Origin: Acidobacteriota bacterium
GTDB taxonomy: Bacteria > Acidobacteriota > Thermoanaerobaculia > UBA5066 > Gp7-AA6
NCBI GenBank assembly: GCA_020199905.1
Contig: JAIVJS010000021.1
Span: 14,649 to 78,648 of the forward strand
Direction: 5' to 3'
DNA length: 64,000 bases
In this document: positions 2,946 through 23,448 of the stretch, in pieces
How positions within the stretch are numbered: the first letter of the stretch is position 1
How the letters are laid out: each line of letters starts with the position of its first letter
Notes under the pieces: model-generated
Seen by the model: only the letters and a program-made list of their open reading frames with translations
What the model was told of the DNA's origin: nothing
The model's database searches: none
Translations under genes and position numbers: made by a program

Positions 2946-3503
2946 ATGACGAGGCGACGGGATCCGGAAAGCGGGATTACCCGCGTGGAGAAGCCCGCTG
3001 GTGCTCTTCGGGGGGGCATCGCCGTGGGATTCACCGTGGCGGAAGACGTCGTTTACGTCAGCCTCGGCCTCCTCCTCGCCGTCAGCGCCGGGGCGCTCGT
3101 CGTCGGCGGAGCCGCGGCGCTCGTCCGGAGCCTCGGATCCGGAGCTTCGCCGGTTGAAATCGTCGTCGTGCTCGACCGGATCCTCCTGGTGCTGATGATC
3201 ATCGAGCTCCTCTACACCGTGAAGGTCTCGTTTCAAGAGCACGCCCTCGTGCCGGAGCCTTTTCTCGTCGTCGGCCTCATCGCCGCGACCCGGCGCATCC
3301 TGATCGTCACCGCGCAGCTCGCCGTTTCCGCGGAGAAGACGATGGACGAACTCGCTTTTCGTCACGCGATGCTCGAGCTTGCGCTCCTGACCGTGATGGT
3401 CGTGGCGCTCGTCGCGTCGTTGCTGATGCTGCGAAAGCGAACCGCGGTCGCCGTCGCTGCCGGGATCGGCCCCTCTGCCATCGAGGGTACCGCCCGCGAC
3501 TGA
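2946..3503 (+). CDS. Phosphate-starvation-inducible PsiE-family membrane protein
   Basis: LLVLMIIELLYTV...EPFLVVGLIAATRRIL pattern. Confidence 0.8.
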   Translation: MTRRRDPESGITRVEKPAGALRGGIAVGFTVAEDVVYVSLGLLLAVSAGALVVGGAAALVRSLGSGASPVEIVVVLDRILLVLMIIELLYTVKVSFQEHALVPEPFLVVGLIAATRRILIVTAQLAVSAEKTMDELAFRHAMLELALLTVMVVALVASLLMLRKRTAVAVAAGIGPSAIEGTARD

Positions 3504-7010: not shown

Positions 7011-8488
7011 CGGGAACCGTCCGGCTTTCTGCCGCTCGGCTGAGCGGGCTGCCCCGCGGAGCCCGCCGGCGCGGCTCCGATCCCACCAATGCGGGATTCA
7101 GAATCGATCAAAAAGTTTGCCGACGTGACGATGGTTTCGCCTTCGGCGAGTCCCGAGAGCACTTCCACGAATTCTTTTCCCGAGGCTCCGGTCTTGACGG
7201 CCCGCGGCGCGTACACGCCGGCAGATTGCTCGACGAACGCGATCTGACGATCTCCCGTGTCGATGAGCGCCGATCGGGGCACGGAGAGGACGTCGCGTTG
7301 CCCGGCCTGGAGAGAAACCCGAACGAACATCCCGGGCTTGAGCGAGCCCTTCGGGTTCGGAACGACGACCCGCACCTTGATCGTGCGAGTCTCCTCCGAC
7401 AGCGTCGGATAGACGAAGTCCACGCGGCCCCGAAACGTCTCCCCGGTCAGAAACGACGCCGTGATCTCCGCGGGGTTGCCCTTCGCGACGGACCCCATCT
7501 CCGACTGGTAGACGTCCGCGAGAACCCAGACGGATGAGAGATCGGCGATCGTGTAGAGAGCCATTCCGGGAGTGATCGCCATGCCCGCGACGGCGTCCTT
7601 CTTCAAGACGACCCCGGAAGCGGGGGAGTACAGAGTCAGGGTCTTCGAGATCTCTCCCTTCTTCTCGATCCGCTCTATCTGCGATTCGGAGATGTCCCAG
7701 AGCCGGAGACGCTGGCGCGTCGCGGCGAGAAGCGATCCCGCGTCCGAAGCGGCGCCCGCGCTCGATGAGGCCTGCAGCCGTCGCGCGTTCTCGACCGCCA
7801 GAAGCAGCTCTCTTTCCGTCGCGACGAGCTCGGGGCTGTAGACCGTCAGGAGGGCCTGGCCGCGCCGGACAGGCTGGCCGGTGCGATCGACGAGCAACTT
7901 GTCGATGTATCCCGAGAATTTCGCGCTGACGGAATTCAGCCTGCCCTCGTCTTCTGCGATGACGCCGTTGGTTTCCGTCGCTCCTGCGATCTGACGGCGC
8001 GTGACCTTCCCGGTCGTCACGCCGATCTGCTGCCGCCGTTCGAGCGGGATGCGGACGACGGAAAGGCCCGGAGGGACCGAGCCCGCAGAGACGGGCTCAC
8101 CCTCCGCGTATTTCGGAATCATGTCCATTCCGCAATCGGGCGATTTGCCAGGCCGGTCCGACCGGTACTGCGGGTGCATCGGGTCGTACCAGAAGAGGAC
8201 CTTCTTTTCGGCGGGAGCCGTGGTTGTCTGCGCCTCTTCGGCGTACTTCGGCAGTAGCTGCATGTCCATGAAGGGCGATTTGCCGGGGTGGTCGAAATGG
8301 ACGTCCGGTTTCATCGGGTCGTACCAGTACGCGACCTTCTTCCCGGAGTCCCGCTTCCGGGAGGCGTCCGGGGCGACGTTTGCGCCGGGGCCCGCGCCCG
8401 CCGGCGGCCGGTCCGTTTTGCGGCACGCCAGAGGCGCGAGCAGGACGAGAATTGCGGCTCCGCAGAGCCTGGCGGCATCACTTCTCAT
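7007..8488 (-). CDS. cusB: CusB-like RND periplasmic adaptor with two N-terminal heavy-metal-binding repeats
   Basis: ATG 8488; lipobox-like LAPLAC; YWYDPMKP..PGKSPFMDM and FWYDPMHP..PGKSPDCGMDM; LYSPEL, ANFLIDSES. Confidence 0.9.
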   Translation of the reverse strand: MRSDAARLCGAAILVLLAPLACRKTDRPPAGAGPGANVAPDASRKRDSGKKVAYWYDPMKPDVHFDHPGKSPFMDMQLLPKYAEEAQTTTAPAEKKVLFWYDPMHPQYRSDRPGKSPDCGMDMIPKYAEGEPVSAGSVPPGLSVVRIPLERRQQIGVTTGKVTRRQIAGATETNGVIAEDEGRLNSVSAKFSGYIDKLLVDRTGQPVRRGQALLTVYSPELVATERELLLAVENARRLQASSSAGAASDAGSLLAATRQRLRLWDISESQIERIEKKGEISKTLTLYSPASGVVLKKDAVAGMAITPGMALYTIADLSSVWVLADVYQSEMGSVAKGNPAEITASFLTGETFRGRVDFVYPTLSEETRTIKVRVVVPNPKGSLKPGMFVRVSLQAGQRDVLSVPRSALIDTGDRQIAFVEQSAGVYAPRAVKTGASGKEFVEVLSGLAEGETIVTSANFLIDSESRIGGIGAAPAGSAGQPAQPSGRKPDGSR

Positions 8489-9773
8489 GCGGTTCTCCTG
8501 GCGATGGGGTTCCGGCAATGAGGGGAAGGCCGGAGGCTTTCTGAAGAGCGGCGAGCGCGCGGCCAATCCCGGCGGCGCGCGTCGCGATCTCGCCTTCGTA
8601 GGTATCGAGGTCGAGAGCCGCGCGCACGTACGTCTCGAAGTCGATCTGACCGACCGCGTAGGACTCCTGCGCCGCTCGGAAGTTGATCTCCGCCTGGGGC
8701 ACGATCGTGGTGCGATAGAGCTTCTCCTGCTCGACGTTCCGCTCGAGCTCCACCGCCGCCGCTTCCACGTCGCGGCGAATCTGGTTTCGCACGGCTTCGA
8801 GATCGGCCCGAGCCGAAGAGAGCTCCGCCGCCATTTCGGCGCGTTTCGCCTCGAGGCGGCGAGGATGCGCGAAGGGAAGGTTGATGGAAACGAAGGCGCC
8901 GGCAAGATCCTCGAACTTCTCGCGGCGGCCGTAGTAGGTCGAGACCATCCAGTCGGGCCTGCGGTCGAGCCCCGCCAGCCGCAACTCCTCTTCGGACCGG
9001 CGCAGCGTCGCTCGCGCTGCGGCAACCGCGGGGCTCTTCTCCTCCGCCTCGCGTTCTACGGCGGCGGAATCGGGAATCGAGGGAACCGGATCGAGAGGCC
9101 CGATGACAGGGACTGCGGCCCTGGCGGGAAGAGCCTGCAGGGCGTTCCACCGCGCCGAAAGCACCCGTCTCTCGGCTCTCAACGAGAGGAGACGATCCTC
9201 GAGCGCGGTCGCCGCCAGGTTGGCGCGGAGCACGTCGCTCTGCCCGGCCTTGCCCACCTCATAGCGTTCCTTAGCCGACGCCGAGGTCGTCTTGAGGCGC
9301 TGGCGGGATCGTTCCAGAATCTCCAGGCGCATGTCGAGCTCCGCGATCCCGAAGAAGGCGTCGGCGACGTCGGCTGCAATCCCGACAGCGTGGACGGCAT
9401 GCATCGCGAGCGCATTCTCGGAAGCGGCCTCCGCCGAAGCGCGACGCGTCGCGAGTTTTCCGCGTCCCGGCAGGCTCTGCCGTGCGGTGATCATCTCCAT
9501 CGTGAAGTTGTCCCGCGTGAGCGACGGGCTCGAGACCGGAATGTCCTTGATCCCGACTTCCAGCTCCGGATCCGGGAAAGAGCCGGCCTGAGCGACTCGC
9601 TGTCGAGACGCCTCGATTCGTGACTCCATTGCGGAGAGCTCGGGATTCCTGGCCACGGCGAGTCGGATTGCCGATTGAAGCCTCGAGCTCCAATCCGGAT
9701 CGGCGACGGGACTCTGGCCTTTTACAAAGGGCGCGACGGCGAAAATCGCCGTCGCCAGGCGACGCAGACGCAT
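8478..9773 (-). CDS. TolC-family outer membrane factor (CusC-like)
   Basis: LAVARNPEL, FPDPEL, SINLPF; position upstream of cusBA. Confidence 0.9.
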   Translation of the reverse strand: MRLRRLATAIFAVAPFVKGQSPVADPDWSSRLQSAIRLAVARNPELSAMESRIEASRQRVAQAGSFPDPELEVGIKDIPVSSPSLTRDNFTMEMITARQSLPGRGKLATRRASAEAASENALAMHAVHAVGIAADVADAFFGIAELDMRLEILERSRQRLKTTSASAKERYEVGKAGQSDVLRANLAATALEDRLLSLRAERRVLSARWNALQALPARAAVPVIGPLDPVPSIPDSAAVEREAEEKSPAVAAARATLRRSEEELRLAGLDRRPDWMVSTYYGRREKFEDLAGAFVSINLPFAHPRRLEAKRAEMAAELSSARADLEAVRNQIRRDVEAAAVELERNVEQEKLYRTTIVPQAEINFRAAQESYAVGQIDFETYVRAALDLDTYEGEIATRAAGIGRALAALQKASGLPLIAGTPSPGEPHEK

Positions 9774-9779
9774 ACAACG

Positions 9780-9832
9780 CTCCAGTTCTCGTAATGCCGG
9801 CGAGAGCCGGCGATCTGCGAACGAGAAGGGAG
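9780..9832 (-). promoter_or_regulatory. Anti-Shine-Dalgarno stem between the leader ORF and tolC
   Basis: On the minus strand CUCC-C-UUCUCGU (9832-9821) pairs with ACGAGAA-CU-GGAG (9792-9780). GGAG is the tolC SD, 6 nt before ATG 9773. Inner GCCGGC-UCUC-GCCGGC hairpin. Confidence 0.65.
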
Positions 9833-9833
9833 A

Positions 9834-10184
9834 TTAGAGCCGCAGGGCGGTCGGCAGGGAAGAGGGAGGAGGCGAGGCGGACGTGAAAGCGAGCGACGCA
9901 GGCGCCGCCGAGAAACCGGTGAAAATACGGCCGGGAGCCGCGGGAATCAACGCCACGAGACCTCGACCCGACGAAAAAGCCAGGCCCGCCCGAAGACAGG
10001 ACGTGGCCGAAGGCGATTCAAAGGCGCTGCTCCCGCAGTCCTGATCGCAGCACGAAGAAGAGCGAAACGAGTTGGGCGAAACGGGATCTGCGCAGCAGCT
10101 GGCGCACAAGGTCTGAGCGGATAGCCCCCCGGTCGCGAGGACGGCCGCCAGAACGAATCCCAGGAGTCGGAATCGAGGGGTCAC
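9834..10184 (-). CDS. Secreted Cys-motif leader protein (DUF2946/CutF-like candidate)
   Basis: Signal peptide, CASCC and CCDQDC, Pro-rich C-terminus SPPPSSLPTALRL; directly upstream of tolC. Confidence 0.6.
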   Translation of the reverse strand: MTPRFRLLGFVLAAVLATGGLSAQTLCASCCADPVSPNSFRSSSCCDQDCGSSAFESPSATSCLRAGLAFSSGRGLVALIPAAPGRIFTGFSAAPASLAFTSASPPPSSLPTALRL

Positions 10185-10264
10185 ACCCCCGTCAACCGGC
10201 GTCCCGAGCTATCCATTCCGGCGCCGGCCTGTTCCCTTCCGGCGGGCTCCGCCAACTAACGGGA

Positions 10265-10402
10265 TCAACGACAGTCGGGATGCCCGCAGCCGCATTTCCC
10301 GCCGGACATCTTCCCCTGAGCGCAGGCCTCGGAGCAGGATCCGTTGGGTTGATCTGTCTGACATTTGCACGCGGCATGCTTGCATCTGGTTTCTTCAGCC
10401 AT
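10265..10402 (-). CDS. Metallothionein-like small protein (45 aa)
   Basis: MAEETRCKHAACKCQTDQPNGSCSEACAQGKMSGGKCGCGHPDCR: 8 Cys, 2 His; GGAGG SD before ATG 10402. Confidence 0.75.
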   Translation of the reverse strand: MAEETRCKHAACKCQTDQPNGSCSEACAQGKMSGGKCGCGHPDCR

Positions 10403-10499
10403 TTCTTTCCTCCCTGGCTTCGGAGGATGCAAGACTCGCACCTCGCTGAACGCGACCTGCGCCAGGTCGGGTTCCTGGATCTCCCGCTTCTCTTTGCTC

Positions 10500-11027
10500 C
10501 TACGGCTGCGCCGACGCATCGCGCTCGTACTGCCTGCGACCATACCGGGTGAGGCCCCGCGGCTTGTACACCGACAGTGTCGTGGCCACGAGCAACACCA
10601 GCAGTGCGGCGCCGGCATCAGCCACGAGTTGAATTCTCAGGCCGCGGAGATCGGCACCGGACAATGGCATCCGTGCCGCGACGCCTGCCACGTAGGACGT
10701 TGGCCGCATGTGCACCACCAGGAGAACGGTCGCAAGGATGGTGATCAGGAGTTTGATCAAGACCCAGTAGTGTCGGAACAAACCCCACGTGGTACCCAGC
10801 GCCTGGATCAGCCCTGTGAGCAGCGACGCGACACTCAGGGGGACGATGACGAGCCAGCCGATCAACTCCATCGCGAGATAGGCGGCACGCACCCTCTGAG
10901 CGTCCTGGCTGGCCAGACCGGCGACGGCGAGTGCGAGGAAGCCAGCGACCGCGCCGAGCCAGCCGACCGAGGAAGTGACATGCGCGGTGAGGGCGAACTT
11001 GCGGAGGCGGGGTGTCATCGTCATCAC
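10500..11027 (-). CDS. DUF2269-like integral membrane protein
   Basis: LTAHVTSSVGWLG, WGLFRHYWVLIKL, LSVYKP; four TM segments. Confidence 0.75.
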   Translation of the reverse strand: MMTMTPRLRKFALTAHVTSSVGWLGAVAGFLALAVAGLASQDAQRVRAAYLAMELIGWLVIVPLSVASLLTGLIQALGTTWGLFRHYWVLIKLLITILATVLLVVHMRPTSYVAGVAARMPLSGADLRGLRIQLVADAGAALLVLLVATTLSVYKPRGLTRYGRRQYERDASAQP

Positions 11028-11212
11028 GGCATGTGGCCCCGGAAGCCGCCGCCGGTCAGATGCAGGATGACAAAGAGAAGGACCAGGACGATCGCGATGA
11101 GCCCGAAGACGTAGACCCAGCGTGGTGTGCCGGGGGTGGATACGAGGTCGAATTCCCGACGGCTGATTCCGTCGTTGCCCTTGGAGTCGGGTTGAGGGGG
11201 TGGATCGGGCAC
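11024..11212 (-). CDS. Small single-pass membrane protein
   Basis: TPRWVYVFGLIAIVLVLLFVILHLTGGGFRGH; its TGA overlaps the next ATG. Confidence 0.6.
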   Translation of the reverse strand: MPDPPPQPDSKGNDGISRREFDLVSTPGTPRWVYVFGLIAIVLVLLFVILHLTGGGFRGHMP

Positions 11213-11267
11213 AGGGTTTCTCCTCGTCTGAGGCGCGTCGACCTCGAACCGGGACGCGAGTTTATCG

Positions 11268-11280
11268 AGACAGTCTGTCT
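11268..11280. promoter_or_regulatory. Candidate TetR operator
   Basis: Perfect palindrome AGACAG-T-CTGTCT in the divergent intergenic region upstream of tetR. Confidence 0.55.
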
Positions 11281-11337
11281 TGTGTCAAGTCATAGCGTCT
11301 CGACAGACCGACACTCGCGTCGCGCATACTGGGAAGG

Positions 11338-11910
11338 ATGCCGAAGCTCTGGAACGAGACCATCGAAGCGCACCGCCGCGAGGTTCGTGACGCGATCCTG
11401 GACGCCACGGCGGCGCTGGTGGCCGAGCGCGGGCTGGCGTCGGTGACAATGTCGCGGATCGCCGGGGAATCCAGGATCGGGCGGGCGACTCTTTACAAAT
11501 ATTTTTCAGGCGTCGAAGCGATCCTCGTGGCGTGGCACCAGCGTCAGGTCAGAGCCCACTTCGAGTACCTGATCCAGGTTCGGGACCAGGCGGGCGATGC
11601 GGGCGAGCGGCTCGAAGCCGTCCTCGAGGCCTTCGCGCTCATTTCTCACGAGCACCATGGCACGGAGCTCGCGGCACTCCTGCATCGGGGGGAGCACGTC
11701 GCCCGAGCGCAGCAGCACTTGAGCGACCTGATTCGAGACCTTCTGACCGAGGCCGCAAAAACCGGCGATCTCCGGGACGATGTCTCGCCTGACGAGCTGG
11801 CGAGCTATTGCCTCCACTCCTTGACGGCAGCCAGCCGTCTCCGTTCCAAGGCCGCGGTCCGCCGGCTCGTCAAAGTCATTCTGGCTGGACTGCGCCCCGG
11901 TCCCTCCTGA
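11338..11910 (+). CDS. TetR/AcrR-family transcriptional regulator
   Basis: ILDATAALVAERGLASVTMSRIAGESRIGRATLYKYF helix-turn-helix. Confidence 0.95.
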   Translation: MPKLWNETIEAHRREVRDAILDATAALVAERGLASVTMSRIAGESRIGRATLYKYFSGVEAILVAWHQRQVRAHFEYLIQVRDQAGDAGERLEAVLEAFALISHEHHGTELAALLHRGEHVARAQQHLSDLIRDLLTEAAKTGDLRDDVSPDELASYCLHSLTAASRLRSKAAVRRLVKVILAGLRPGPS

Positions 11911-11946
11911 CGCTGTTTCCGCAACACGACAAATCGCCCTTTGTTC

Positions 11947-12870
11947 TCAAAAGCCCGCTCCGCTCCGGAGTCTGGAGAGCAGTTGCATCATGCCCGCCCA
12001 TTCGCTTCTCAGTTCGGGGATGTCCATCTGCCGGAACTGGCGGTCGGCTTCGCGCCCGTCCTGCCACAGGTGATCGACGTTGCCGCGGACGTCCTCCGGG
12101 CTCAACCCGCGCTCGTACCGTTCGTGAAAAGCGTCGGCTTGCTGCGCGAAGTGCTCGATGGCCTCGACAGTGCCCCTCCGGCCCTCGTCGTCCCGGTAGC
12201 GGCCCGTGAGCTGGCTCGTCAGGCTGGACAGGCGCGCGGAGCGTTCGGCAAGTTCATGGGCCAGCGCCGCGACCTGCTCCCGGTCATAACCCCGCCCCTC
12301 CGGTCTTCCCACCTCATACCGATCATTCGACCGGTCGTTGGAGTAATAGCCCGAGCCCGCCGGCGGGGCAACGTGCTCGTCGCGGTATTGCGGTTCCGGG
12401 GCGCCGTACTGGTTGCGTGCGAGATCCGATTGGTAGACCCGGATCATCTGGTTCAGCAGGATGACCACCTGGTTCCAGTCGCCGACCGTGTGGCGATCCG
12501 CGTTCCGGGAACGTCTCAGCCGGTATTGAACCGCTCTGGCGTCGCGCAGGATGAGGCGCAGTTCGTCGTCGACCTGCCAGGGCGCCGTGCGGTAATCGTC
12601 CATGCGGTCGTGAAACCGATTCGCGCGGTTGGCAAAGCTGTTGATCGACCTCAGGAACCGGGGGTCGTGACCGTAGAACCAGACTCCCTGGTGCTGTGCC
12701 TGGTCGTTGGCGTGCTGGGCCTGCTCGTCGAGCTCGTGCGCGAATTGACGCATTTGCTGGTAGCCGCGGTCAGACAGGGTGTCGTGATCCCCCCTCGCGG
12801 TGCCCGCGGCCAGAAACAGAAGCGCGAACCCTGCCCCGAGGAGCGCCGTCGTTCTGTTTTTCGCGTTCAT
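11947..12870 (-). CDS. Hypothetical secreted two-domain helical protein (paralog of 18502..19407)
   Basis: GGAGG SD, signal peptide, internal repeat (FAHELDEQA / LAHELAERS), shared YRTAPWQxDDELR motif. Confidence 0.75.
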   Translation of the reverse strand: MNAKNRTTALLGAGFALLFLAAGTARGDHDTLSDRGYQQMRQFAHELDEQAQHANDQAQHQGVWFYGHDPRFLRSINSFANRANRFHDRMDDYRTAPWQVDDELRLILRDARAVQYRLRRSRNADRHTVGDWNQVVILLNQMIRVYQSDLARNQYGAPEPQYRDEHVAPPAGSGYYSNDRSNDRYEVGRPEGRGYDREQVAALAHELAERSARLSSLTSQLTGRYRDDEGRRGTVEAIEHFAQQADAFHERYERGLSPEDVRGNVDHLWQDGREADRQFRQMDIPELRSEWAGMMQLLSRLRSGAGF

Positions 12871-13134
12871 GCTGTCGCCTCCCAACTCTTCGTTTCAGCA
12901 AGGAACGGTCCACATCGGAAGGGCTGTGTCCGGAAGCACTTGCGGGTCGCGCAGAAGCCGGAGTGTCCTCCCTCGGGGACGATTCGTAACCCTCCGACCA
13001 TCCGGGCGGCCTCGCCGCCGCCTCGGACGGCAGCGTCCGCGTCGATCTGGCATCCGGGGGAAGCTCTCCGCCCTCCCGGGGCGGTCCACCCGGGTGGAAT
13101 CCGGGGCGTGTCGTGAGAGTTAGGAAGCCTTGAG

Positions 13135-13578
13135 ATGAAGACCCGGAGTTGCTTCGCCGTCGCGCTCGCTCTGGTCCTGGTGGCGTTGCCTGTCTTCGCC
13201 GGGGTTTGCGACCTGCGGTGCGCCTCGGCGCAGGGCGCGATGCGTCGCTTCGGGGTCCAGGAGAGGGCAACCGAATCGACCACCGGTTCCGGTCTCGACG
13301 CCATGTCCTGCCCTCTTCACGCCGCCGACAAGTCGGATCCGGAGCCTTTTCCATCGTCTTCGAGTCCCTGCCATGGCCAGCGCGGCGGTGGCAGCGGCGC
13401 CGTTCTCGTGGCCGCTTCCGCCTCCCCCTCCTCGATGAGCTTCGGCCACTCTCCGGCATTCGAAGCCTCGTCCGTCCCCGACCTCGTGCGCGCCGGCGCG
13501 AATTCTTCTCGCTCCCGCGAGTCCGAGTTTCACCGAAGGCCCGGGTTCTCCCCGCTTCTTTCGATCCTCCGACTCTAA
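13135..13578 (+). CDS. Secreted Cys-motif leader protein (DUF2946/CutF-like candidate)
   Basis: Signal peptide ending VFA, CDLRC, SCPLH, CHG, C-terminus RRPGFSPLLSILRL; first gene of the beta-barrel operon. Confidence 0.6.
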   Translation: MKTRSCFAVALALVLVALPVFAGVCDLRCASAQGAMRRFGVQERATESTTGSGLDAMSCPLHAADKSDPEPFPSSSSPCHGQRGGGSGAVLVAASASPSSMSFGHSPAFEASSVPDLVRAGANSSRSRESEFHRRPGFSPLLSILRL

Positions 13579-13580
13579 GA

Positions 13581-13668
13581 CTTCGTTCAACCAGGTCGTC
13601 ACCGCTCCTCCACGCGTTGAAGCGCGCCGGTCGGAGCGGCTCAGCAGTCCGTGAACCTGTGAACGAGG
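13581..13668 (+). promoter_or_regulatory. Anti-Shine-Dalgarno stem between the leader ORF and the beta-barrel gene
   Basis: CUUCGUUCA (13581-89) pairs with UGAACGAGG (13660-68), which contains the GAGG SD of ATG 13678. Inner stem CCGCUCC (13602-08) / GGAGCGG (13633-39). Confidence 0.65.
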
Positions 13669-13677
13669 ACTCCCGAA

Positions 13678-15081
13678 ATGAAAGCATTTGCTCCCGCATT
13701 CGTCTTCGCGTGGCTGATCGCCGGTGGCGCTCTCGCGCAGCACGAGCATCATTCCTCCGCGCCGTCGCCGACACCCACCCCGGCCCCGGAGGGTTCGACT
13801 CCGGGCGATAAGGATCCGATGAAGGGGATGGACCACAGCCAGATGGATATGCCGATGACCGGCGAACCTGACGCCAGCCGCAACCTCTTCCAGTCCGACA
13901 TGAACCTGATGACGGGGATGACACCGCACGATCCGATGGCGGGCATGACCGGCATGACCGGCTGGCACCTGATGGATATGGGAATCGCGCGGCTGTCCTA
14001 CAACCGGCAGGGAGGCGCATCGGGAGGCAACAGGATCGAGTCCAGCAACTGGAACATGATTCATGTCCAGAAAGCGATCGGTCCGGGCCGCCTGTCATTG
14101 ATGATGATGAACTCCCTGGAGCCCGCGACTTTCGCCAAGCGAGGCTCTCCTGAGCTCTTCCAGACAGGCGAGAGCTTCCGCGGGGAACCCCTCGTCGATC
14201 GGCAGCACCCCCACGACTTCTTCATGAACCTCTCCGCGACGTACCGGCTGGATCTGGGGCCCGACGCGGGCGCCTGGTTTCAGCTTGCGCCGGTCGGCGA
14301 GCCGGCCCTCGGACCGACCGCGTTCATGCACCGCGCTTCCTCCGGCGACAACGGAACCGCACCGCTCGGGCACCACTGGCAGGACTCGACGCACATCGCC
14401 TACAACGTCGTCACGCTCGGGGGAGGCTGGAAGTGGCTCGCTCTCGAGGGTTCCGCTTTTCGAGGAAGAGAGCCGGACGAACACCGCTGGGACATCGACG
14501 GAGGCAGGATTGACTCGGCTTCTCTCCGCGCGAGGTTCTTCTTCGGAGGAGGCTGGTCCGGCCAGGTTTCCCACGGCTACCTGCGGCAACCCGAGGATCT
14601 CGTGCCCGGAAACACGCATCGGACGACTGCCGCCGTGGAGTATGGAGCGGAAGGCGACCGGCCCCTCGCGGTGACGCTGCTGTGGGGGAGGAACGTGGAA
14701 ACACACGGAACGAGTGACGCCTACCTGTTGGAAGGGGCCTGGCAAATGACGGCGACAGATCAGCTCTACGGCCGCGCGGAGCTCGTTCAGAAGGATCGCG
14801 AGCTTCTCGAAACGAAGCAGAGCTCCGGCGGCCGCGACGGCGGCGGGCAAGAAGAGCTCGTCCGGGTCGGTGCCTACACGGCGGGCTACGTTCGGGATTT
14901 CGACTGGGTGTCCGGACTGCGGACGGGGATCGGCGCCGACGTCACGGCCTACAGCTTTCCGTCGAGCTTGAAGCCTGTCTACGGCGACTTTCCGCTCTCC
15001 GTCCATGCTTTTCTGCGGCTGAGATGGGGCTCGCCCCACGCGGCCGCCGGACACGCGGGACATGCTGGAATGAAGATGTGA
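13678..15081 (+). CDS. Putative outer-membrane beta-barrel protein with His/Met-rich termini
   Basis: Signal peptide, QHEHH, MKGMDHSQMDMPM, amphipathic beta-strand pattern, C-terminal HAAAGHAGHAGMKM. Confidence 0.7.
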   Translation: MKAFAPAFVFAWLIAGGALAQHEHHSSAPSPTPTPAPEGSTPGDKDPMKGMDHSQMDMPMTGEPDASRNLFQSDMNLMTGMTPHDPMAGMTGMTGWHLMDMGIARLSYNRQGGASGGNRIESSNWNMIHVQKAIGPGRLSLMMMNSLEPATFAKRGSPELFQTGESFRGEPLVDRQHPHDFFMNLSATYRLDLGPDAGAWFQLAPVGEPALGPTAFMHRASSGDNGTAPLGHHWQDSTHIAYNVVTLGGGWKWLALEGSAFRGREPDEHRWDIDGGRIDSASLRARFFFGGGWSGQVSHGYLRQPEDLVPGNTHRTTAAVEYGAEGDRPLAVTLLWGRNVETHGTSDAYLLEGAWQMTATDQLYGRAELVQKDRELLETKQSSGGRDGGGQEELVRVGAYTAGYVRDFDWVSGLRTGIGADVTAYSFPSSLKPVYGDFPLSVHAFLRLRWGSPHAAAGHAGHAGMKM

Positions 15082-15312: not shown

Positions 15313-15942
15313 ATGTCGAAGCCGAAAGGGATCCTTCTCGTCCTGCTTCTCGCCTTCCTCGCCGGGGGCGCGGTCTTGTTCGCCGGCATGGTTCGGCGCG
15401 GTTTCAGTGCTCGGGACACGCCGTCGATGCCGGAGGCCTTCATGGCGCAACGGATGCGCCGCTGGTCGATCCCCGCGAAGGCGCGGGAGATGAAGAATCC
15501 GTTCGCGGACTCGGCGGAAGCCGTCGCCGGAGGTCGGGCGCACTTCGCCGACCACTGCGCGACCTGTCATGGCAATGACGGGAGGGGCAAGACGGAGATC
15601 GGCCAGAACCTCTACCCGAAGGCGCCGGACATGTGGGGCAGGGAAACTCAGAAGCTCTCTGACGGCGAGATTTTCTACATCATCAAGAACGGCGTCCGTC
15701 TGACCGGCATGCCCGCGTGGGGACAGGACACCCCGGAAGACGATCGGCAGTCGTGGCACCTGGTCGCATTCATCCGTCACATGCCGCGGATCACGGCGGA
15801 AGAGCTCGAGGCGATGAAAGCGATGAATCCCGTCAGCCCCATGGAGATGAAGGAAGAGAAGGAAACCGACGAGTTTCTGGAGGGAGGCGACGCGTCGAGG
15901 CCGTCTCCCGAGCACAAACCGGCCGCCAAACACGGCCATTGA
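15313..15942 (+). CDS. Membrane-anchored c-type cytochrome
   Basis: CATCH heme motif, YPKAPDM, LSDGEIFYIIKNGVRLTGMPAW. Confidence 0.9.
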   Translation: MSKPKGILLVLLLAFLAGGAVLFAGMVRRGFSARDTPSMPEAFMAQRMRRWSIPAKAREMKNPFADSAEAVAGGRAHFADHCATCHGNDGRGKTEIGQNLYPKAPDMWGRETQKLSDGEIFYIIKNGVRLTGMPAWGQDTPEDDRQSWHLVAFIRHMPRITAEELEAMKAMNPVSPMEMKEEKETDEFLEGGDASRPSPEHKPAAKHGH

Positions 15943-15956
15943 AAAGGAGTCTGATC

Positions 15957-16283
15957 ATGAGAAAGATACTCGGATCCCTGGTTCTCGCCGCGACGGTCCT
16001 GGTTCCCGGAGCTCTTCTGGCGCACGAAGGCCATCGCCACGTCATGGGAACGGTGACCGCCGTCGACGCGACGCACGTGGAAATCCAGACGAAGGATGGG
16101 AAGTCGAGCTCGGTCCCGCTCTCCTCGTCCACGAAGTACTACAAAGGCAGCAAGGGCAAGACGGCGGGTGCGGCCTCGGCGATGAAGGTCGGAACGCGGG
16201 TGATGATCGATCTCGCAAAGGACGGCAGCGCGAGTGAAGTTCGGTTGCCGGCAGGCAGGATGAGCTCGTCGCACAAGATGTAG
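15957..16283 (+). CDS. Secreted small beta-rich (OB-fold-like) putative metal-binding protein
   Basis: AAGGAG SD, ATG 15957, signal peptide then HEGHRHVMGTVTAVD...KVGTRV; CusF/DUF5666-like pattern. Confidence 0.65.
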   Translation: MRKILGSLVLAATVLVPGALLAHEGHRHVMGTVTAVDATHVEIQTKDGKSSSVPLSSSTKYYKGSKGKTAGAASAMKVGTRVMIDLAKDGSASEVRLPAGRMSSSHKM

Positions 16284-17387: not shown

Positions 17388-18215
17388 CTATTTTGCCGGG
17401 TCGCGCGGGCCGCTCCGGTCCTCGACGTCCGCTTGTCCGCCGTCGGCCCAGTTGACGAAAGTGAGGATCTTGTTGCCGTGCCCGAAATCGAGCTCGAAGG
17501 TTGAGGTGCTGCCATCCTCAGAACGCTCGATTTCTCTGCCCCACTGGCCCGGGCCGTCCAGAACCAGGTCTTCCATTGCCGGCGGCATGACGGCGGCGGA
17601 CTTGACGGTCGTGCTCGAGTCGAGATGCGTGTAGATGGTGACGAGCTCGTCGTAATCGTGCGCGTTCGGACGGGTGCTCAGGGTGCTTCCGGCGTTGGCG
17701 CCCGTGTTCGAAAAATAGTCCATACAGGTGTCTTGCGAGCTGCCGTCCGTGCTCTGATGGTCGAGCCCGAACGTATGGCCGATTTCCTGACACATCACGT
17801 GCCGTCGCTCGTTGGGGTTGTTGTAGGTCGCCGTGTCGAAGTAGGTGTCGTTGACTTTGACGGTGCCTTGCGTGATGTGCGTGCCGCCCGTGATCGAGAT
17901 CGACGCGAGCCCGAGCCAGCCGTTGTTGCCATACCGGCCGTTGCAGACCTGGATGGTGCCCGCGACGGCGGAGCAGTGCTTGTTCGACGTGCCTGTGACA
18001 GCGGTGAGGTTCAGGACGCTGGAGGATGTCCAGTCGGACAGGGCCGCGTCGAAATAGCTTTGCCAGTTCGAGTCGACGTTATCGCCGGTTTTGAGAGTGA
18101 AGGGGTTGGAGGTTCGCGCCCAGTGGTATCCGCCCCAGGAATGGTTCGCGAGAGCCATCGACGGAGACGCGATTACGAGAAGGGCCAGGATCACGCGGCG
18201 GGGAGTCCAGGACAT
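17388..18215 (-). CDS. Secreted metzincin-like metallopeptidase with a variant zinc motif
   Basis: Signal peptide; CQEIGHTFGLDH followed by a TCMDY Met-turn. Confidence 0.7.
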   Translation of the reverse strand: MSWTPRRVILALLVIASPSMALANHSWGGYHWARTSNPFTLKTGDNVDSNWQSYFDAALSDWTSSSVLNLTAVTGTSNKHCSAVAGTIQVCNGRYGNNGWLGLASISITGGTHITQGTVKVNDTYFDTATYNNPNERRHVMCQEIGHTFGLDHQSTDGSSQDTCMDYFSNTGANAGSTLSTRPNAHDYDELVTIYTHLDSSTTVKSAAVMPPAMEDLVLDGPGQWGREIERSEDGSTSTFELDFGHGNKILTFVNWADGGQADVEDRSGPRDPAK

Positions 18216-18501
18216 CAGAGCCTCCTTCTGAAGTGTGTCAGAAACGCCCAATCCTAAAAGAAAAATGCACTCGCGCGGCAGGTGAATCCTTGATGGGCGA
18301 GTGCCTGGTGGAGGGAATATACACCGCCCGTCGCCCCGCCCGAAGGCGTACCGAGTGACTCCGGCCGGCTGAAGTCCCGCTTCCTGAGAGCGACCGTCCT
18401 GTTCCGGGGACAGTTCGGTGACGGATCTCAGGTAAGTGCTTTTGTTTGAGCGCCTCGTTCTGGATCGAAGTTTGCTCCACGGAACCTCGGAGGTGAACTC
18501 G

Positions 18502-19407
18502 ATGAAATTGAGAACACGATGGTTGCTGGCAATCTCTGCCTGTGTCTGCGTTTCTTTTCTCGCGGCGAATACCGCGACAGCTCATGACCCCGTTACAGGG
18601 CGCGCATCCGGGGTCCTCTCGGACCGTGGCTACGAACGGATGCGCCAGCTCGCCCACGACCTCGACGGCCAGGCCGAGCACGCCAGTCAACAGGCCAATC
18701 AGGGCGGGGGATTTTATCGAAACGATCGCAATTTGCGGCGGTCCGTCGCCAATTTCGCGCGTCGCGCCTCTGACTTCCACTCGCGGATGGATACGTACCG
18801 CACGGCACCGTGGCAGCTGGATGACGAGCTGCGGGGACTCCTCCGGGATGCGCGGGCGGTTCAGTCCCGCATGCAGCGCTCCCGCAACACCGATGACCAC
18901 ACAGCCGCGGACTGGTCCAAGACGGTGGAAGTCCTGAACGAGATGATCCGGGTCTACCAGTCGGATGCGACCGGATCGACGTCTGATCAGGGCGGGTATG
19001 GACGTCAGGGAGACGCCGGGCGTTATGGCGACCGGTACGAAGCCCGCGGCTCGGCTCGAGGCGGTTACAACGAGCAACAGGTCGGCCCCTTGATCCACCA
19101 GCTCGCCGAGCGCTCGACGCGATTGATGGACGCGGTGAACCAGCTTTCAGGGCGTTATTCGGGTAGCACGGGTCAGAACCAGTCCGTCCAGGCGATCCAG
19201 CATTTCACCGAACAGGCAAATACCTTTCATGAGAGATATGAGGGGGGGCTGAGCCCGGAGGACGTGCGCGGGAATATCGGCCACCTCTGGGACGACGCGC
19301 GTGAGGCGGACCAGCAGTTCAGGCAGTCGAACATTCCGGAGCTGCAGGGCGAGTGGTCCGGGATGATGCAGCTGCTCACGCGGATCCGGAGCGCCGCGGG
19401 TTTCTGA
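18502..19407 (+). CDS. Hypothetical secreted two-domain helical protein (paralog of 11947..12870)
   Basis: GGAGG SD, ATG 18502, signal peptide, SDRGY..MRQLAHDLD, YRTAPWQLDDELR, EWSGMMQLLTRIRSAAGF. Confidence 0.75.
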   Translation: MKLRTRWLLAISACVCVSFLAANTATAHDPVTGRASGVLSDRGYERMRQLAHDLDGQAEHASQQANQGGGFYRNDRNLRRSVANFARRASDFHSRMDTYRTAPWQLDDELRGLLRDARAVQSRMQRSRNTDDHTAADWSKTVEVLNEMIRVYQSDATGSTSDQGGYGRQGDAGRYGDRYEARGSARGGYNEQQVGPLIHQLAERSTRLMDAVNQLSGRYSGSTGQNQSVQAIQHFTEQANTFHERYEGGLSPEDVRGNIGHLWDDAREADQQFRQSNIPELQGEWSGMMQLLTRIRSAAGF

Positions 19408-20456: not shown

Positions 20457-22922
20457 GTGAGCAGTAAAGAACAGCGGCCCCCCGAGGCGAAGTCCGGAGC
20501 GAACCCTCTCAGGGATGCGGTCTGCGGGATGACGGTTTCGGAAGAAAGTTCCCATCGGGAAACATGGAACGGCCGGCCGTTCGTCTTCTGCAGTGCAGGG
20601 TGTCAGGAGAAGTTCAGGGAGCATCCCGAGCGCTACGTTCTCCGGCCCGAACCAGTGCCTCTTGCCGCGACCGGGACTGCGCCGGCGCCCATCGCTTCGG
20701 GAGAGAGTTTGACTTGCCCGATGCACCCGGAAGTCCGAGAAAAGAGCTCCGGCTCCTGCCCGAAGTGCGGCATGGCCCTCGAAGGAGTGATCCCCTCGTC
20801 TGCGGCCTCGAGGGCGCAGTGGACCTGCCCGATGCATCCCGAGATCGTCCGCGATGGTCCCGGCAGCTGTCCGATCTGCGGGATGGCGCTCGAGCCGCGG
20901 ACGATTTCGGCAGGCGACCGAGAGAATCCCGAGCTGGTTGACATGCGGCGGAGGTTCGCAGTCTCCGCTGTGCTGTCCGTTCCCCTTCTCGTCATTGCCA
21001 TGCGCGACCTCCTCCCGGGATCTGCCGGAATGGGCGCCTCCGGGGTCCTGCCGTGGGTCGAGCTCGCGCTGGCGACGCCGGTTGTCGTGTGGGGGGGCTG
21101 GCCCTTCTTCGTTCGGTTTGCGCAGTCGATCCGAAATCGCAGCCTGAACATGTTCACGCTGATCGGCCTGGGCGTCGCCGTCGCGTACTTCTACAGTCTG
21201 GCGGCCATCTTCTTTCCGGGTCTTTTCCCCGCGTCGTTCCGGGATGCTTCAGGACACGTCGGGCTGTATTTCGAAGCGGCGGCCATCATCGTCACGCTCG
21301 TGCTTCTGGGCCAGGTTCTGGAGTTGAAGGCCCGGAGCCAGACGGGTGCGGCGATCCGCGCCCTCCTGGATCTCGCCCCGAAGACCGCCCGCCGCATCGA
21401 GCAGGGCGGCGCCGAGGTCGATATCCCTCTCGATCAGGTCCAGGTCGGCGATCGGCTCCGGGTTCGGCCGGGGGAGAAAATTCCGGTCGACGGGAGCGTC
21501 GTGGAAGGCCACACCGCGGTGGACGAGTCGATGGTCACGGGTGAGCCGATTCCGGTCGAAAAGAATGCGGGTGATCGACTCATCGGATCCACGGTCAACG
21601 GCACCGGCTCGGTCGTCCTGACCGCGGAACGCGTCGGGGCCGAGACGATGCTTTCTCAGATCGTCCGGCTCGTCAGCGAAGCGCAACGCACGCGCGCGCC
21701 GATCCAGAAGCTCGCCGATCTGGTGGCCGGCTACTTCGTTCCGATCGTCATTGCCGTCGCCGTCATCACCTTTGGCGTCTGGGCGTTCGCCGGGCCCGAT
21801 CCCAGGATGGCTCATGGTCTCGTGAACGCGGTCGCGGTCCTCATCATCGCCTGCCCCTGTGCCCTCGGGCTCGCAACGCCGATGTCCATCATGGTGGCGA
21901 CCGGGAAGGCGGCAAAAGCGGGGGTGCTCTTTCGAAATGCCGAGGCCATCGAGTCCTTGCGAAAGGTCGACACCCTCGTGATGGACAAGACCGGAACGAT
22001 CACGGAAGGAAAGCCTAGGGTCGCAGAGATCCTGGCGCAGCCCGGATTCGAGGAGGCGGAAGTGCTTCGACTCGCGGCGAGCCTCGAGAGAGGAAGCGAG
22101 CATCCTCTGGCGGCATCCATCGTTGCGGCCGCCGGAGAGAGGCAGGTCCGACTCGAGCCAGTCGGCGACTTTCAATCGCGGACGGGACGAGGCGTGTCGG
22201 GCCGGGTTGCAGGACGCGCCGTCGCGCTCGGAAACGCGGCTCTCCTGGCGGAAATGGGCCTCGATCCGGCAGGGCTCGGCGCTCGGGCGGAGGACATGCG
22301 GTCGCGGGGTCAAACGGCGGTCTTTCTGGCCGTGGACGGAAAGATGGCCGGGATTCTCGGCATCGCGGATCCCATCAAGAAGACGAGCCCGGAGGCGATC
22401 GGCCACCTCCGCGCCGAAGGGATCCGCGTCGTCATGCTCACCGGCGACAGCAAGACCACCGCGAACGCGGTTGCGAAGGAGCTCGGAATCGACGAGGTCG
22501 TCGCGGAGGTGCTCCCGGAGGACAAGGTGAACGTCATCAAGCGCTATCAGGCTGAAGGCCGGTTCGTGGCGATGGCTGGCGACGGGGTCAACGACGCTCC
22601 GGCCCTCGCCCAGGCGCAGGTCGGAATCGCGATGGGGACGGGAACGGACGTCGCGATGGAAAGCGCCGGCGTGACGCTGCTCCGAGGCGACCTCCTGGGA
22701 ATCGTGCGTGCCCGAAGCCTGAGCCGCGCGACCATGCGGAACATCAAACAGAATCTCTTTTTCGCCTTCGTTTACAACGTGCTCGGAATTCCCATCGCAG
22801 GGGGCGTTCTCTATCCTTTTTTCGGTGTTCTTCTGAGCCCGATGATCGCTGCCGCGGCGATGAGCTTCAGTTCCGTTTCGGTGATCGGGAATTCACTGAG
22901 GCTGAGTCGAACGAAAGTTTGA
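20457..22922 (+). CDS. copA: Copper-translocating P1B-type ATPase with N-terminal YHS and two heavy-metal-binding repeats
   Basis: DAVCGM..FCSAGC, TCPMHPE x2, [35 protein letters not shown]. Confidence 0.95.
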
Positions 22923-23145: not shown

Positions 23146-23448
23146 ATGAAGAGGTCTCTTCCCGTGATGGAAAAGGTTTTCGTGCCAGACCGGCGCAAGG
23201 AGGCCGTTCGGGCTCGTTTGAAGCGTGCGCGAGGGCAGGTGGATGGGATCGAGCGGATGCTGGAGGAAAACCGACCATGCGCCGAGGTTCTTCAACAGAT
23301 CGCGGCCGCGCAGGAGGCTCTGCGGGCCGCCGGGAAGCTCATGGTCCGAAGCTACATCGAGAAGTGCGCGGCGGAGGGAATCAGGGCCGGTCGAACGGAG
23401 GAAGTGTACGACGAGCTTTTGGACATCATCTACCGGATGGTCCGGTAA
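23146..23448 (+). CDS. CsoR/RcnR-family metal-sensing repressor
   Basis: RLKRARGQVDGIERMLEENRPCAEVLQQIAAAQEAL...YIEKC. Confidence 0.9.
   Translation: MKRSLPVMEKVFVPDRRKEAVRARLKRARGQVDGIERMLEENRPCAEVLQQIAAAQEALRAAGKLMVRSYIEKCAAEGIRAGRTEEVYDELLDIIYRMVR

Follow-up and report, generated by a model that had tools for sequence, protein, structure and literature searches.

Sensing of extracytoplasmic metal by an exported nascent chain was described only between 2022 and 2025, for two proteobacterial proteins, both of which have proline-based arrest motifs. In Rhodobacter capsulatus, copper on the periplasm-exposed nascent chain of CutF (cutFOG operon, DUF2946-type) prolongs ribosome stalling, and the stalled ribosome melts a stem-loop that occludes the Shine-Dalgarno sequence (SD) of cutO; CutF works in cis only and is degraded following export (PMC9973294; 10.1101/2025.02.05.636593). 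Changing its PPP to PAP abolishes regulation (10.1101/2025.02.05.636593). CruR (Bp2923, DUF2946) of Bordetella pertussis carries CXXC and RAPP motifs 45 conserved residues apart and controls a TonB-dependent transporter through Rho. There, copper relieves the arrest and so represses an uptake system, the intergenic region is 162 nt long and the protein is, like CutF, degraded after export and active only in cis (PMC9426467). Here we describe a small open reading frame (ORF) of 147 codons, ORF147, in a 64,000-nt stretch (the window) of an Acidobacteriota genome (assembly GCA_020199905.1, contig JAIVJS010000021.1, positions 14,649 to 78,648). It lies just upstream of a gene for a porin-like outer-membrane beta-barrel, and we consider it moderately probable that it is an exported sensor upstream ORF (uORF) of the CutF/CruR type, which would control translation of the barrel gene in cis.

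Ozturk et al. (2023) collected 5,334 'CutF-like' proteins, mostly from Proteobacteria and Bacteroidota, whose commonest downstream neighbour is the outer-membrane efflux protein (OEP) of a resistance-nodulation-division (RND) pump. Their filter demanded PP in the last 15 residues, and CzcI was remarked upon as having no proline motif (PMC9973294). CzcI of Cupriavidus metallidurans has been reported as a periplasmic protein that quenches the CzcCBA pump (PMC10127602). Upstream of copAB, the small, Cys/His-rich ORF CopL/CohL must be present in cis for copper-induced expression (cited in PMC9973294). The Acidobacteriota are a lineage where switches of the CutF/CruR type had not been described.

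ORF147 is a real, conserved coding gene, and not one for a conventional folded protein. Its N-terminus (MKTRSCFAVALALVLVALPVFA/GV) has typical n-, h- and c-regions ending in VFA/G and, on inspection, looks like a Sec signal peptide; such a peptide was seen in all homologues. The motifs CDLRC (residues 25-29), SCPLH (58-62) and PCHG (78-81, with CHG at 79-81) follow, and the C-terminus (PGFSPLLSILRL, or ...RRPGFSPLLSILRL) ends in ILRL before a TAA stop at 13576-13578. An initial annotation, made from the letters alone, had listed a 147-aa ORF with a signal peptide, CDLRC, SCPLH, CHG and an ILRL end, and all of these were found at 13135-13578 (Table 1). The GC content at third codon positions is 0.78, similar to that of neighbouring genes, compared with 0.62-0.64 in the other two frames. 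Pairwise dN/dS values are 0.41-0.68 and stay below 1 over the whole length, with variation concentrated outside the motifs. Conservation over the last 13 codons exceeds that of the entire ORF, and in most pairs ORF147 is much less constrained than the adjacent barrel gene. The mature part (125 aa) is composed of 19% Ser, 12% Ala, 10% Gly and 8% Pro. An AlphaFold2 (AF2) model from a shallow alignment has a helix at residues 3-40 (signal peptide) only; the rest has a predicted local distance difference (pLDDT) of 40-50 and the predicted template modelling score (pTM) is 0.19. Pfam and NCBIfam scans returned no family match at E <= 0.1 for ORF147 or for ORF116, the second leader of the window (below). 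As modelled, the polypeptide looks more like a transient sensor than like a folded protein.

Table 1. Features of the two leader loci and of the barrel operon (positions in the window)
Feature	Position	Strand	Basis or remark
Perfect palindrome TCCACCCGGGTGGA, promoter/5' region of ORF147	13085..13098	+	sequence comparison
SD-like AGGAAG of ORF147, 7 nt 5' of its ATG	13122..13127	+	sequence reading
ORF147, leader ORF (147 aa + TAA)	13135..13578	+	exported (predicted), Cys/His-bearing, mostly disordered polypeptide; homologues, dN/dS, GC at third codon positions, AF2
Predicted Sec signal peptide of ORF147, aa 1-22, ...VFA/GV	13135..13200	+	inspection; kept in all homologues
CDLRC (CxxxC) of ORF147, immediately past predicted cleavage site	13207..13221	+	C25, C29 invariant
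SCPLH of ORF147 (C59, H62)	13306..13320	+	both residues invariant in clade
PCHG of ORF147 (C79, last conserved Cys, 68 residues from C-terminus)	13366..13377	+	
Conserved C-terminal tail R-x-P-x2-S-P-x2-S-I-L-R-L of ORF147	13534..13575	+	conservation
5' arm CUUCGUUCA of SD-sequestering helix, starting 2 nt past ORF147 stop	13581..13589	+	fold and comparative
Inner helix CCGCUCC/GGAGCGG and apical CGCG hairpin	13602..13639	+	fold; 91.5% of cells paired; 2 pairs with compensatory change
3' arm UGAACGAGG, includes barrel SD GAGGA (13665-13669)	13660..13669	+	fold and comparative
Porin-like outer-membrane beta-barrel gene, 467 aa, with signal peptide and Met/His-rich N-terminal extension	13678..15081	+	
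Cytochrome c gene, barrel operon	15313-15942	+	
Small ExtJ/DUF5666-like protein gene, barrel operon	15960-16283	+	
ORF116, second leader (116 aa), signal peptide, LCASCC and CCDQDC motifs, tail SPPPSSLPTALRL	9834..10184	-	
Hairpin starting 2 nt past ORF116 stop	9780..9832	-	fold, z = -2.0
OEP (CusC/CzcC-like) gene, ATG at 9773	8478..9773	-	followed by CusB-like membrane fusion protein with HMBD domains

The intergenic region between ORF147 and the barrel gene is 99 nt long (74-105 nt in relatives), and its minimum-free-energy (MFE) fold is a stem-loop of about 90 nt. At the base, CTTCGTTCA (13581-13589) forms a 9-bp stem with TGAACGAGG (13660-13668) that takes up the barrel SD, located 8 nt 5' of the ATG at 13678; the inner stem joins CCGCTCC (13602-13608) to GGAGCGG (13633-13639). 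Both the anti-SD stem that includes the barrel SD and begins 2 nt past the TAA and the inner stem, as drawn in the initial annotation, are present in this fold. Two other identities for the hairpin were considered and rejected. It has no U-tract and is therefore not an intrinsic terminator (the terminator scan finds none at 13580-13670), and it is not a repeated element, as the covariance model matches the window once. A search of 9600-13800 against Rfam 15 matched no curated covariance model at E <= 1.

The support for a layout beyond chance is comparative, not single-sequence. We folded the region from 30 nt before the leader stop to 12 nt past the start of the downstream gene at 19 loci (11 of the ORF147 clade, seven with distant leaders ending in LR[ILV] upstream of barrel genes, and ORF116), and counted a locus if at least four of six SD-core bases were paired within -23 to +11 nt of the stop. 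The SD partner in the MFE fold falls in this interval at 18 of the 19 loci, compared with 4.8 expected from dinucleotide shuffles of the upstream part (P < 5e-6), and in 10 of 11 cases once the loci are collapsed to about 11 lineages. The intergenic regions of the seven distant loci cannot be aligned with that of the window (unalignable sequences include L022, L030/36, L034, L057 and L063). The partner sits just past the stop in L022 (ACUGCUCCUG with CAGGAGCAGU), L030 (CCCCUGG with CCAGUGGGG) and L034 (AUCUCCA with UGGAGAU), and in the last leader codons in L005, L087, L089, L091 and L063. Partner position took the place of an RNAduplex energy computed between the stop and SD regions. That energy did not discriminate from shuffles, since a purine-rich SD will pair with any C/U-rich 44-mer.

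A covariance model built from six sequences also recovers the non-seed loci L005 and L088. In the resulting alignment of eight sequences 91.4% of cells are paired; sliding the 3' partners by 1-3 columns lowers this to 35-45%. Compensatory changes affect three pairs, among them a U-A that became C-G in the basal helix and, within the inner helix, three C-G to U-A exchanges; of 500 shuffles, 10 reached the covariation score. Among ORFs of 60-260 aa in 80 barrel-centred genome loci, ends of the form [LF]R[LIV] occur in 9 of the 85 that end just upstream of the barrel gene versus 12 of 2,579 elsewhere (odds ratio 25, Fisher p = 5e-9); as the loci are phylogenetically related, this p-value and the preceding one are optimistic. 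The contention of the initial annotation that the layout argues against chance is thus borne out, and so are the outcomes that it had anticipated: the 25-fold enrichment (a check set beforehand), stems that are kept, if with few compensatory changes, and an anti-SD element at the leader stop. Masking a ribosome footprint at the stop raises the mean unpaired probability of the SD from 0.15 to 0.32, compared with 0.14 for an equal mask in the middle of the intergenic region, an opening that is partial and in some loci nil.

We identified three close homologues of ORF147 by word-indexed search (62-95% identity) and eight distant ones by exhaustive hidden Markov model search (down to ~30% identity), all of which align end to end. 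Word-indexed protein searches returned only 3 and 7 relatives, whereas the exhaustive representative search returned 11, and overall the family has about 15 homologues. It evolves too fast for sequence mining: in metagenome scans, none of the 60 pattern matches to the leader protein alignment was confirmed, and the 120 loci retrieved through a degenerate DNA pattern for GVCDLRCA all proved to be chance matches, none with the tail. An impression gained from close relatives, of an intergenic region better conserved than the ORF, was dropped when the wider set gave identities of 0.35-0.85 for the former and 0.44-0.76 for the latter. Invariant in the clade alignment are C25, C29, C59, H62, C79, R134, L145 and R146, and the tail consensus is R-x-P-x2-S-P-x2-S-[IV]-L-R-[LIV]. 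The tail of ORF147 is a candidate tunnel-interacting or pause motif.

The last conserved Cys is located 67-70 residues, mostly 68, from the C-terminus in all 16 clade members (30-95% identity). The intervening segment is the least conserved in sequence, yet it is fixed in length, whereas the C29-C59 spacer ranges from 20 to 32. From this comparison, the fixed distance is a putative molecular ruler. The corresponding distance is 60-69 residues in distant LR[ILV] leaders, 61-62 in Pyrinomonadaceae leaders ending in ...[RQ]CCVFLI and 43-46 in the PPPP[KR]A-tailed leaders of Gemmatimonadota and Burkholderiales. In eight Pyrinomonadaceae loci (L009, L011, L013, L014, L016, L017, L019 and L020) the ...[RQ]CCVFLI leader precedes the barrel gene and is followed by a second small secreted ORF with 7-20 Cys and a Lys-rich end.

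The tail of ORF147 includes an anti-SD-like string, UCCUCC (13565-13570), and the rare Arg codon CGA (13570-13572). The penultimate Arg of LR[ILV] leaders is encoded by CGA (11 loci) or AGA (2 loci) in 13 of 21 loci, compared with 12% of Arg codons in the downstream genes (binomial p = 1e-7, uncorrected for phylogeny). The excess is seen in at least 6 of ~10 lineages, and 17 of the 21 loci have C as the final base of the last sense codon. A rare penultimate Arg codon is compatible with a programmed slow step beside the stop; slow decoding and an RNA-level constraint are both possible.

The same layout occurs a second time in the window, on the opposite strand. ORF116 ends in TALRL, with PPP at -13 to -11. 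A hairpin begins 2 nt past its stop, and in it CUCC/UUCUCGU is paired with ACGAGAA/GGAG, where the SD of the OEP gene lies; this gene is predicted to be under ORF116 control. BLASTP found no significant similarity between the two leaders (E = 0.089), in keeping with the earlier remark that they share no obvious sequence apart from LRL. The window has 339 ORFs of 60 aa or longer, and an end of the form [LFIVM]R[LIV] occurs in only two of them, exactly ORF147 and ORF116. Immediately upstream of ORF116, and on its strand, comes a metallothionein-like small Cys-rich ORF (10265..10618; C-terminal part MAEETRCKHAACKCQTDQPNGSCSEACAQGKMSGGKCGCGHPDCR at 10265-10400, minus strand) that matches no family in Pfam or NCBIfam.

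CutF is the system to which ORF147 is most readily compared. Each is a small ORF with a Sec signal peptide for export (predicted in ORF147), CxxxC plus additional Cys and a copper-related operon. In each, the C-terminal motif is conserved and lies at a fixed distance from the metal site (putative in ORF147), the SD of the next gene is shielded by a stem-loop (for ORF147 in silico and by comparison) and the intergenic distance is below 100 nt. CutF ends in ...GPPPRL, so that a terminal R-L is common to the two. They differ in that the tail of ORF147 (HRRPGFSPLLSILRL) has no PP, RAPP or PPP, in that its distance from Cys to C-terminus is ~68 residues rather than the ~45 of CutF and CruR, and in that its CxxxC stands right at the mature chain's N-terminus. 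The target of CutF is a multicopper oxidase, while that of ORF147 would be an uncharacterised porin-like, Met/His-rich barrel. The cis action of CutF and its dependence on copper and EF-P are experimental, whereas ORF147 is known from sequence alone. The CxxxC is of the CutF form (C25-x3-C29, invariant), not CXXC. A PP in the last 15 residues is absent from ORF147 and from 14 of 16 clade members but present in ORF116, L034, L057, L063 and P0129. ORF116 fits the published CutF-like rule (SASPPPSSLPTALRL, PPP within the last 15 residues, OEP downstream), and ORF147, with 147 aa, falls within its size limit (<150 aa).

CruR resembles ORF147 in being encoded by a uORF, poorly structured, exported (predicted for ORF147) and Cys-bearing, with a conserved C-terminal arrest-type motif and spacing, at the head of an outer-membrane-protein operon and in showing a C>G bubble across the ORF's 3' part. 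It differs by its CXXC and RAPP, its 162-nt intergenic region, its Rho-dependent termination and its copper-relieved arrest; ORF147 has no RAPP, is followed by a structured, SD-sequestering hairpin and likely has an inducing logic. Its motif spacing is conserved, as in DUF2946, but measures 67-70 residues. In SecM, VemP and MifM an exported nascent chain also undergoes C-terminal arrest, and a hairpin that masks the next SD melts, as proposed here; these proteins respond to export flux, not to a metal, and have unrelated arrest motifs. CopL/CohL of Xanthomonas and Stenotrophomonas, which we take to be the 'CopL family' of NCBIfam, is comparable to ORF147 and ORF116 as a Cys/His-rich small ORF; the two leaders have no NCBIfam or Pfam match and precede a different gene. 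ORF116 also resembles CzcI/CzcI2 and CusD/SilD-type ORFs, which are small Cys/His ORFs with a signal peptide that immediately precede the OEP gene of heavy-metal RND pumps. CzcI (compared by description only) shares with ORF147 the absence of a C-terminal proline motif (PMC9973294), and differs from our reading of it in being a reported pump-quenching periplasmic protein.

By analogy, we would file ORF147 as working like CutF and not as a demonstrated member of DUF2946, because it has no PF11162 match, does not pass the proline filter and is linked only weakly by profile-profile comparison. The initial annotation had called this the best candidate for an undescribed regulatory system. That part does not stand, since the anatomy is that of the published CutF mechanism, and the uORF-sensor concept has also been published for CruR (PMC9973294, 10.1101/2025.02.05.636593, PMC9426467). 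What is new in ORF147 is the proline-poor variant, with its ~68-residue ruler, rare-codon-marked LR[ILV] end, occurrence in Acidobacteriota and porin-like barrel as target; the architecture of exported uORF metal sensors is already published.

The proposal of a lineage-specific family of LRL-ending leaders holds for a family of exported Cys/His ORFs with a ...LR[LIV] end that heads metal-related outer-membrane genes, but not for strict lineage specificity. In Gemmatimonadota and Burkholderiales (L046, L059, L065, L072, L074 and L076) the same barrel family is headed by classic CutF-like PPPP[KR]A ORFs; therefore, the barrel is a recurrent target of such leaders. We inspected the Gemmatimonadota PPPP[KR]A loci for this hairpin as well, but could not score them, their start sites and SDs being too uncertain. 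Intermediates appear to connect the two tail types: in the Thermoanaerobaculia locus L006 the leader (2478-2951) ends in SPPPARSSTILRL, combining a CutF-type PPP with an ILRL end, as PPP and LRL are combined in ORF116, and the leaders of L057 and L063 have GPPG or HPPR 12-17 residues ahead of ...LRI. The gene order in L006 is leader, cytochrome c, small protein, barrel. Profile-profile comparison gave a probability of 0.3% for ORF116 against the LRI profile and cannot prove common descent of the tail classes; this is unsurprising, because the leaders are short, of low complexity and fast-evolving.

The ORF, its motifs and their conservation, the geometry of the hairpin, the fixed Cys-to-C-terminus distance and the copper-related context are observed. 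From these, and by analogy, we infer how the leader would be exported, bind metal and make the ribosome pause, in which direction it would regulate and which metal it would sense, as follows. The operon mRNA would form the ~90-nt hairpin, with the 9 nt past the leader stop paired to the barrel SD, and the barrel gene would therefore be poorly initiated alone. ORF147 would be translated and threaded co-translationally through Sec, so that, once the ribosome is at the last codons, the four Cys and two His, ~68-120 residues upstream, would already be outside the membrane. The ribosome tunnel holds ~30 aa and the SecYEG channel ~17-20 aa (figures in PMC9973294), and residues at least 68 positions upstream should therefore be exposed to the periplasm. 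Copper, another thiophilic metal or a change in thiol redox state would alter the pulling force on the nascent chain, and thus the dwell of the ribosome on the tail R-x-P-x2-S-P-x2-S-I-L-R(CGA)-L-stop. A ribosome held at or near the stop would cover and unwind the 5' arm, which begins 2 nt downstream, and the freed SD would allow the barrel protein and the rest of the operon to be made.

Several results weigh against this reading. In the window itself, the fold energy of the hairpin is not beyond chance (z = -1.07; 29 of 200 shuffles fold equally well), and in single sequences the pairing probability of the SD is not above that of shuffles, given the GC-rich, C/U-rich context. The covariation support is consistent but modest, coming from eight sequences, the relatedness of the loci flatters the p-values, and the in silico opening by the stop mask is incomplete. 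The DUF2946 profile (PF11162) did not match ORF147 or ORF116 at E <= 0.1, and a Pfam scan of 32 barrel-associated leader ORFs gave two weak DUF2946 matches (E = 0.024), below the gathering score. Profile-profile links are weak: the ORF147 clade matched the distant LR[ILV] leaders with 48% probability, through the signal peptide and CxxxC only, and the PPPP[KR]A leaders with 3%. A length of 147 aa is at the upper limit of the CutF-like class. Finally, the PPP that is essential in CutF is absent from ORF147, and EF-P-sensitive stalling can therefore not be assumed.

A simpler explanation, unlikely in our estimate, is plain translational coupling: the hairpin would make barrel translation dependent on leader translation, for stoichiometry or mRNA protection, and metal control would be transcriptional, via CsoR or another regulator. 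A hairpin beginning inside the footprint of a terminating ribosome opens whether or not the translating ribosome pauses, ORF147 has no polyproline stalling motif, and a CsoR gene and operator directly upstream of the leader in relatives would suffice for copper control. Coupling leaves unexplained, however, why a fast-evolving, disordered protein keeps its 14-residue tail, 67-70-residue spacing, Cys/His set and signal peptide, and why its penultimate Arg codon is rare. Mere coincidence, in which the small gene is real and the hairpin and shared LRL end are accidents of a GC-rich genome, seems extremely improbable to us. The unimpressive single-sequence statistics are what it would predict, but not the stop-proximal anti-SD at 18 of 19 loci (4.8 expected), the tail enrichment (p = 5e-9), the confinement of the tail to both leaders among 339 window ORFs or a pairing so dependent on register (91% versus ~40%).

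We regard as distinctly unlikely a periplasmic role in trans for the mature protein, in the manner of CzcI, whether by modulating the barrel as a metal-binding protein or by serving as its plug or chaperone. The hydrophobic-x-hydrophobic C-terminus (LRL, LRI, LRV or FLI) would then be a docking or degradation signal, as such ends can be, for example for a PDZ protease. The four conserved Cys and two conserved His in a mature part of 125 aa and a dN/dS below 1 across the whole ORF would fit such a protein, and CzcI, which occupies the same position upstream of an RND pump and has no proline motif, is described as a pump-acting periplasmic protein (PMC10127602; PMC9973294). On the other hand, AF2 predicts no folded domain, a fixed distance to the C-terminus and an anti-SD at the stop codon are needless for a trans-acting protein, and both CutF and CruR work solely in cis and are degraded once exported. 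Roles in trans and as a cis sensor are not mutually exclusive. Polarity as in CruR, in which the dwell at the leader end sets the access of Rho to a C-rich Rho utilization (rut) site and premature termination before the barrel gene replaces or adds to SD unmasking, is improbable in our view. There is a C>G bubble (GC skew -0.26 to -0.36) over 13394-13627, i.e., the 3' half of ORF147 and the start of the intergenic region, and this is the signature used to locate the Rho site of cruR (PMC9426467). However, the intergenic region is strongly structured and 99 nt long, versus 162 nt in cruR, the conserved feature is the SD-sequestering geometry, and the C-richness is partly a by-product of Ser/Pro/Ala-rich coding.

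A broader proposition, possible but on balance doubtful, is that LR[ILV] leaders form a polyproline-independent class of metal-responsive arrest sequences. These would pause at, or one codon before, termination, with the tail signature R-x-P-x2-S-P-x2-S-hydrophobic-L-R-hydrophobic-stop, often marked by CGA or AGA, and a ruler of 68 rather than 45 residues to the periplasm-exposed Cys/His site, and would gate widespread Met/His-rich porin-like channels. If the sensor reading of ORF147 is true, a proline-free device with a conserved tail, a longer fixed ruler and an anti-SD at the stop codon would make the principle wider than DUF2946 and PPP, and would offer a second, independent arrest sequence for dissection. 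It would also tie a large unnamed family of porin-like barrels to copper/silver homeostasis, and the context-based approach is a route to the annotation of fast-evolving leader ORFs that profile searches overlook.

The barrel protein has more than 7,900 homologues at E < 1e-5, all unnamed, in Acidobacteriota, Gemmatimonadota, Bacteroidota, Proteobacteria, Verrucomicrobiota and other groups. A Pfam scan gave no match for it, nor did a PDB sequence search with the barrel profile. The AF2 model is a porin-like barrel (pLDDT 62, pTM 0.65), with OmpF, Omp32 and BpsOmp38 as best PDB matches (E 1e-12 to 1e-8). Residues 22-95 form a disordered extension rich in His and Met, and this composition suggests binding of Cu(I)/Ag(I). 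All homologous leader loci with readable DNA have the same barrel gene 74-105 nt downstream. Where the contig continues, genes for cytochrome c, a small ExtJ/DUF5666-like protein and then DUF4396 follow; the order barrel, cytochrome c, ExtJ/DUF5666-like is the same in the window and in relatives L085 and L088.

The context of ORF147 points to copper, through the Met/His-rich N-terminus of the barrel, CsoR in relatives and the copper genes of the window. In relatives L001, L002 and L005 a divergent CsoR gene and a CsoR-type box, TATAC-N9-GTATA, occur upstream of the leader (in L001 at ~3310-3335), the box lying just upstream of the position homologous to the palindrome TCCACCCGGGTGGA. The 64-kb window contains no TATAC-N9-GTATA box and has the palindrome instead, which may act as an operator. 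The CsoR gene of the window (23146-23445) is ~10 kb away and adjoins a YHS/HMBD Cu-type P1B-ATPase (20457-22922); a CusCBA-like pump is also encoded.

A terminator-like hairpin, TCGTGCGCGCCGGCGCGA then ATTCTTCT, is present inside ORF147 at 13484-13501 and is probably due to chance (three such sites versus 1.0 expected in the scanned region). Paralogous secreted proteins of 312 and 323 aa, without a confident family match, are encoded on either side of the barrel operon region, at 11947-12885 (-) and 18436-19407 (+); in the window and in L003/L004, one of these paralogues sits where relatives carry CsoR. A secreted protein with a zinc-metalloprotease-like HExxH and weak Reprolysin/M10 matches is encoded between the barrel operon and the ATPase gene (17388-18251, minus strand).

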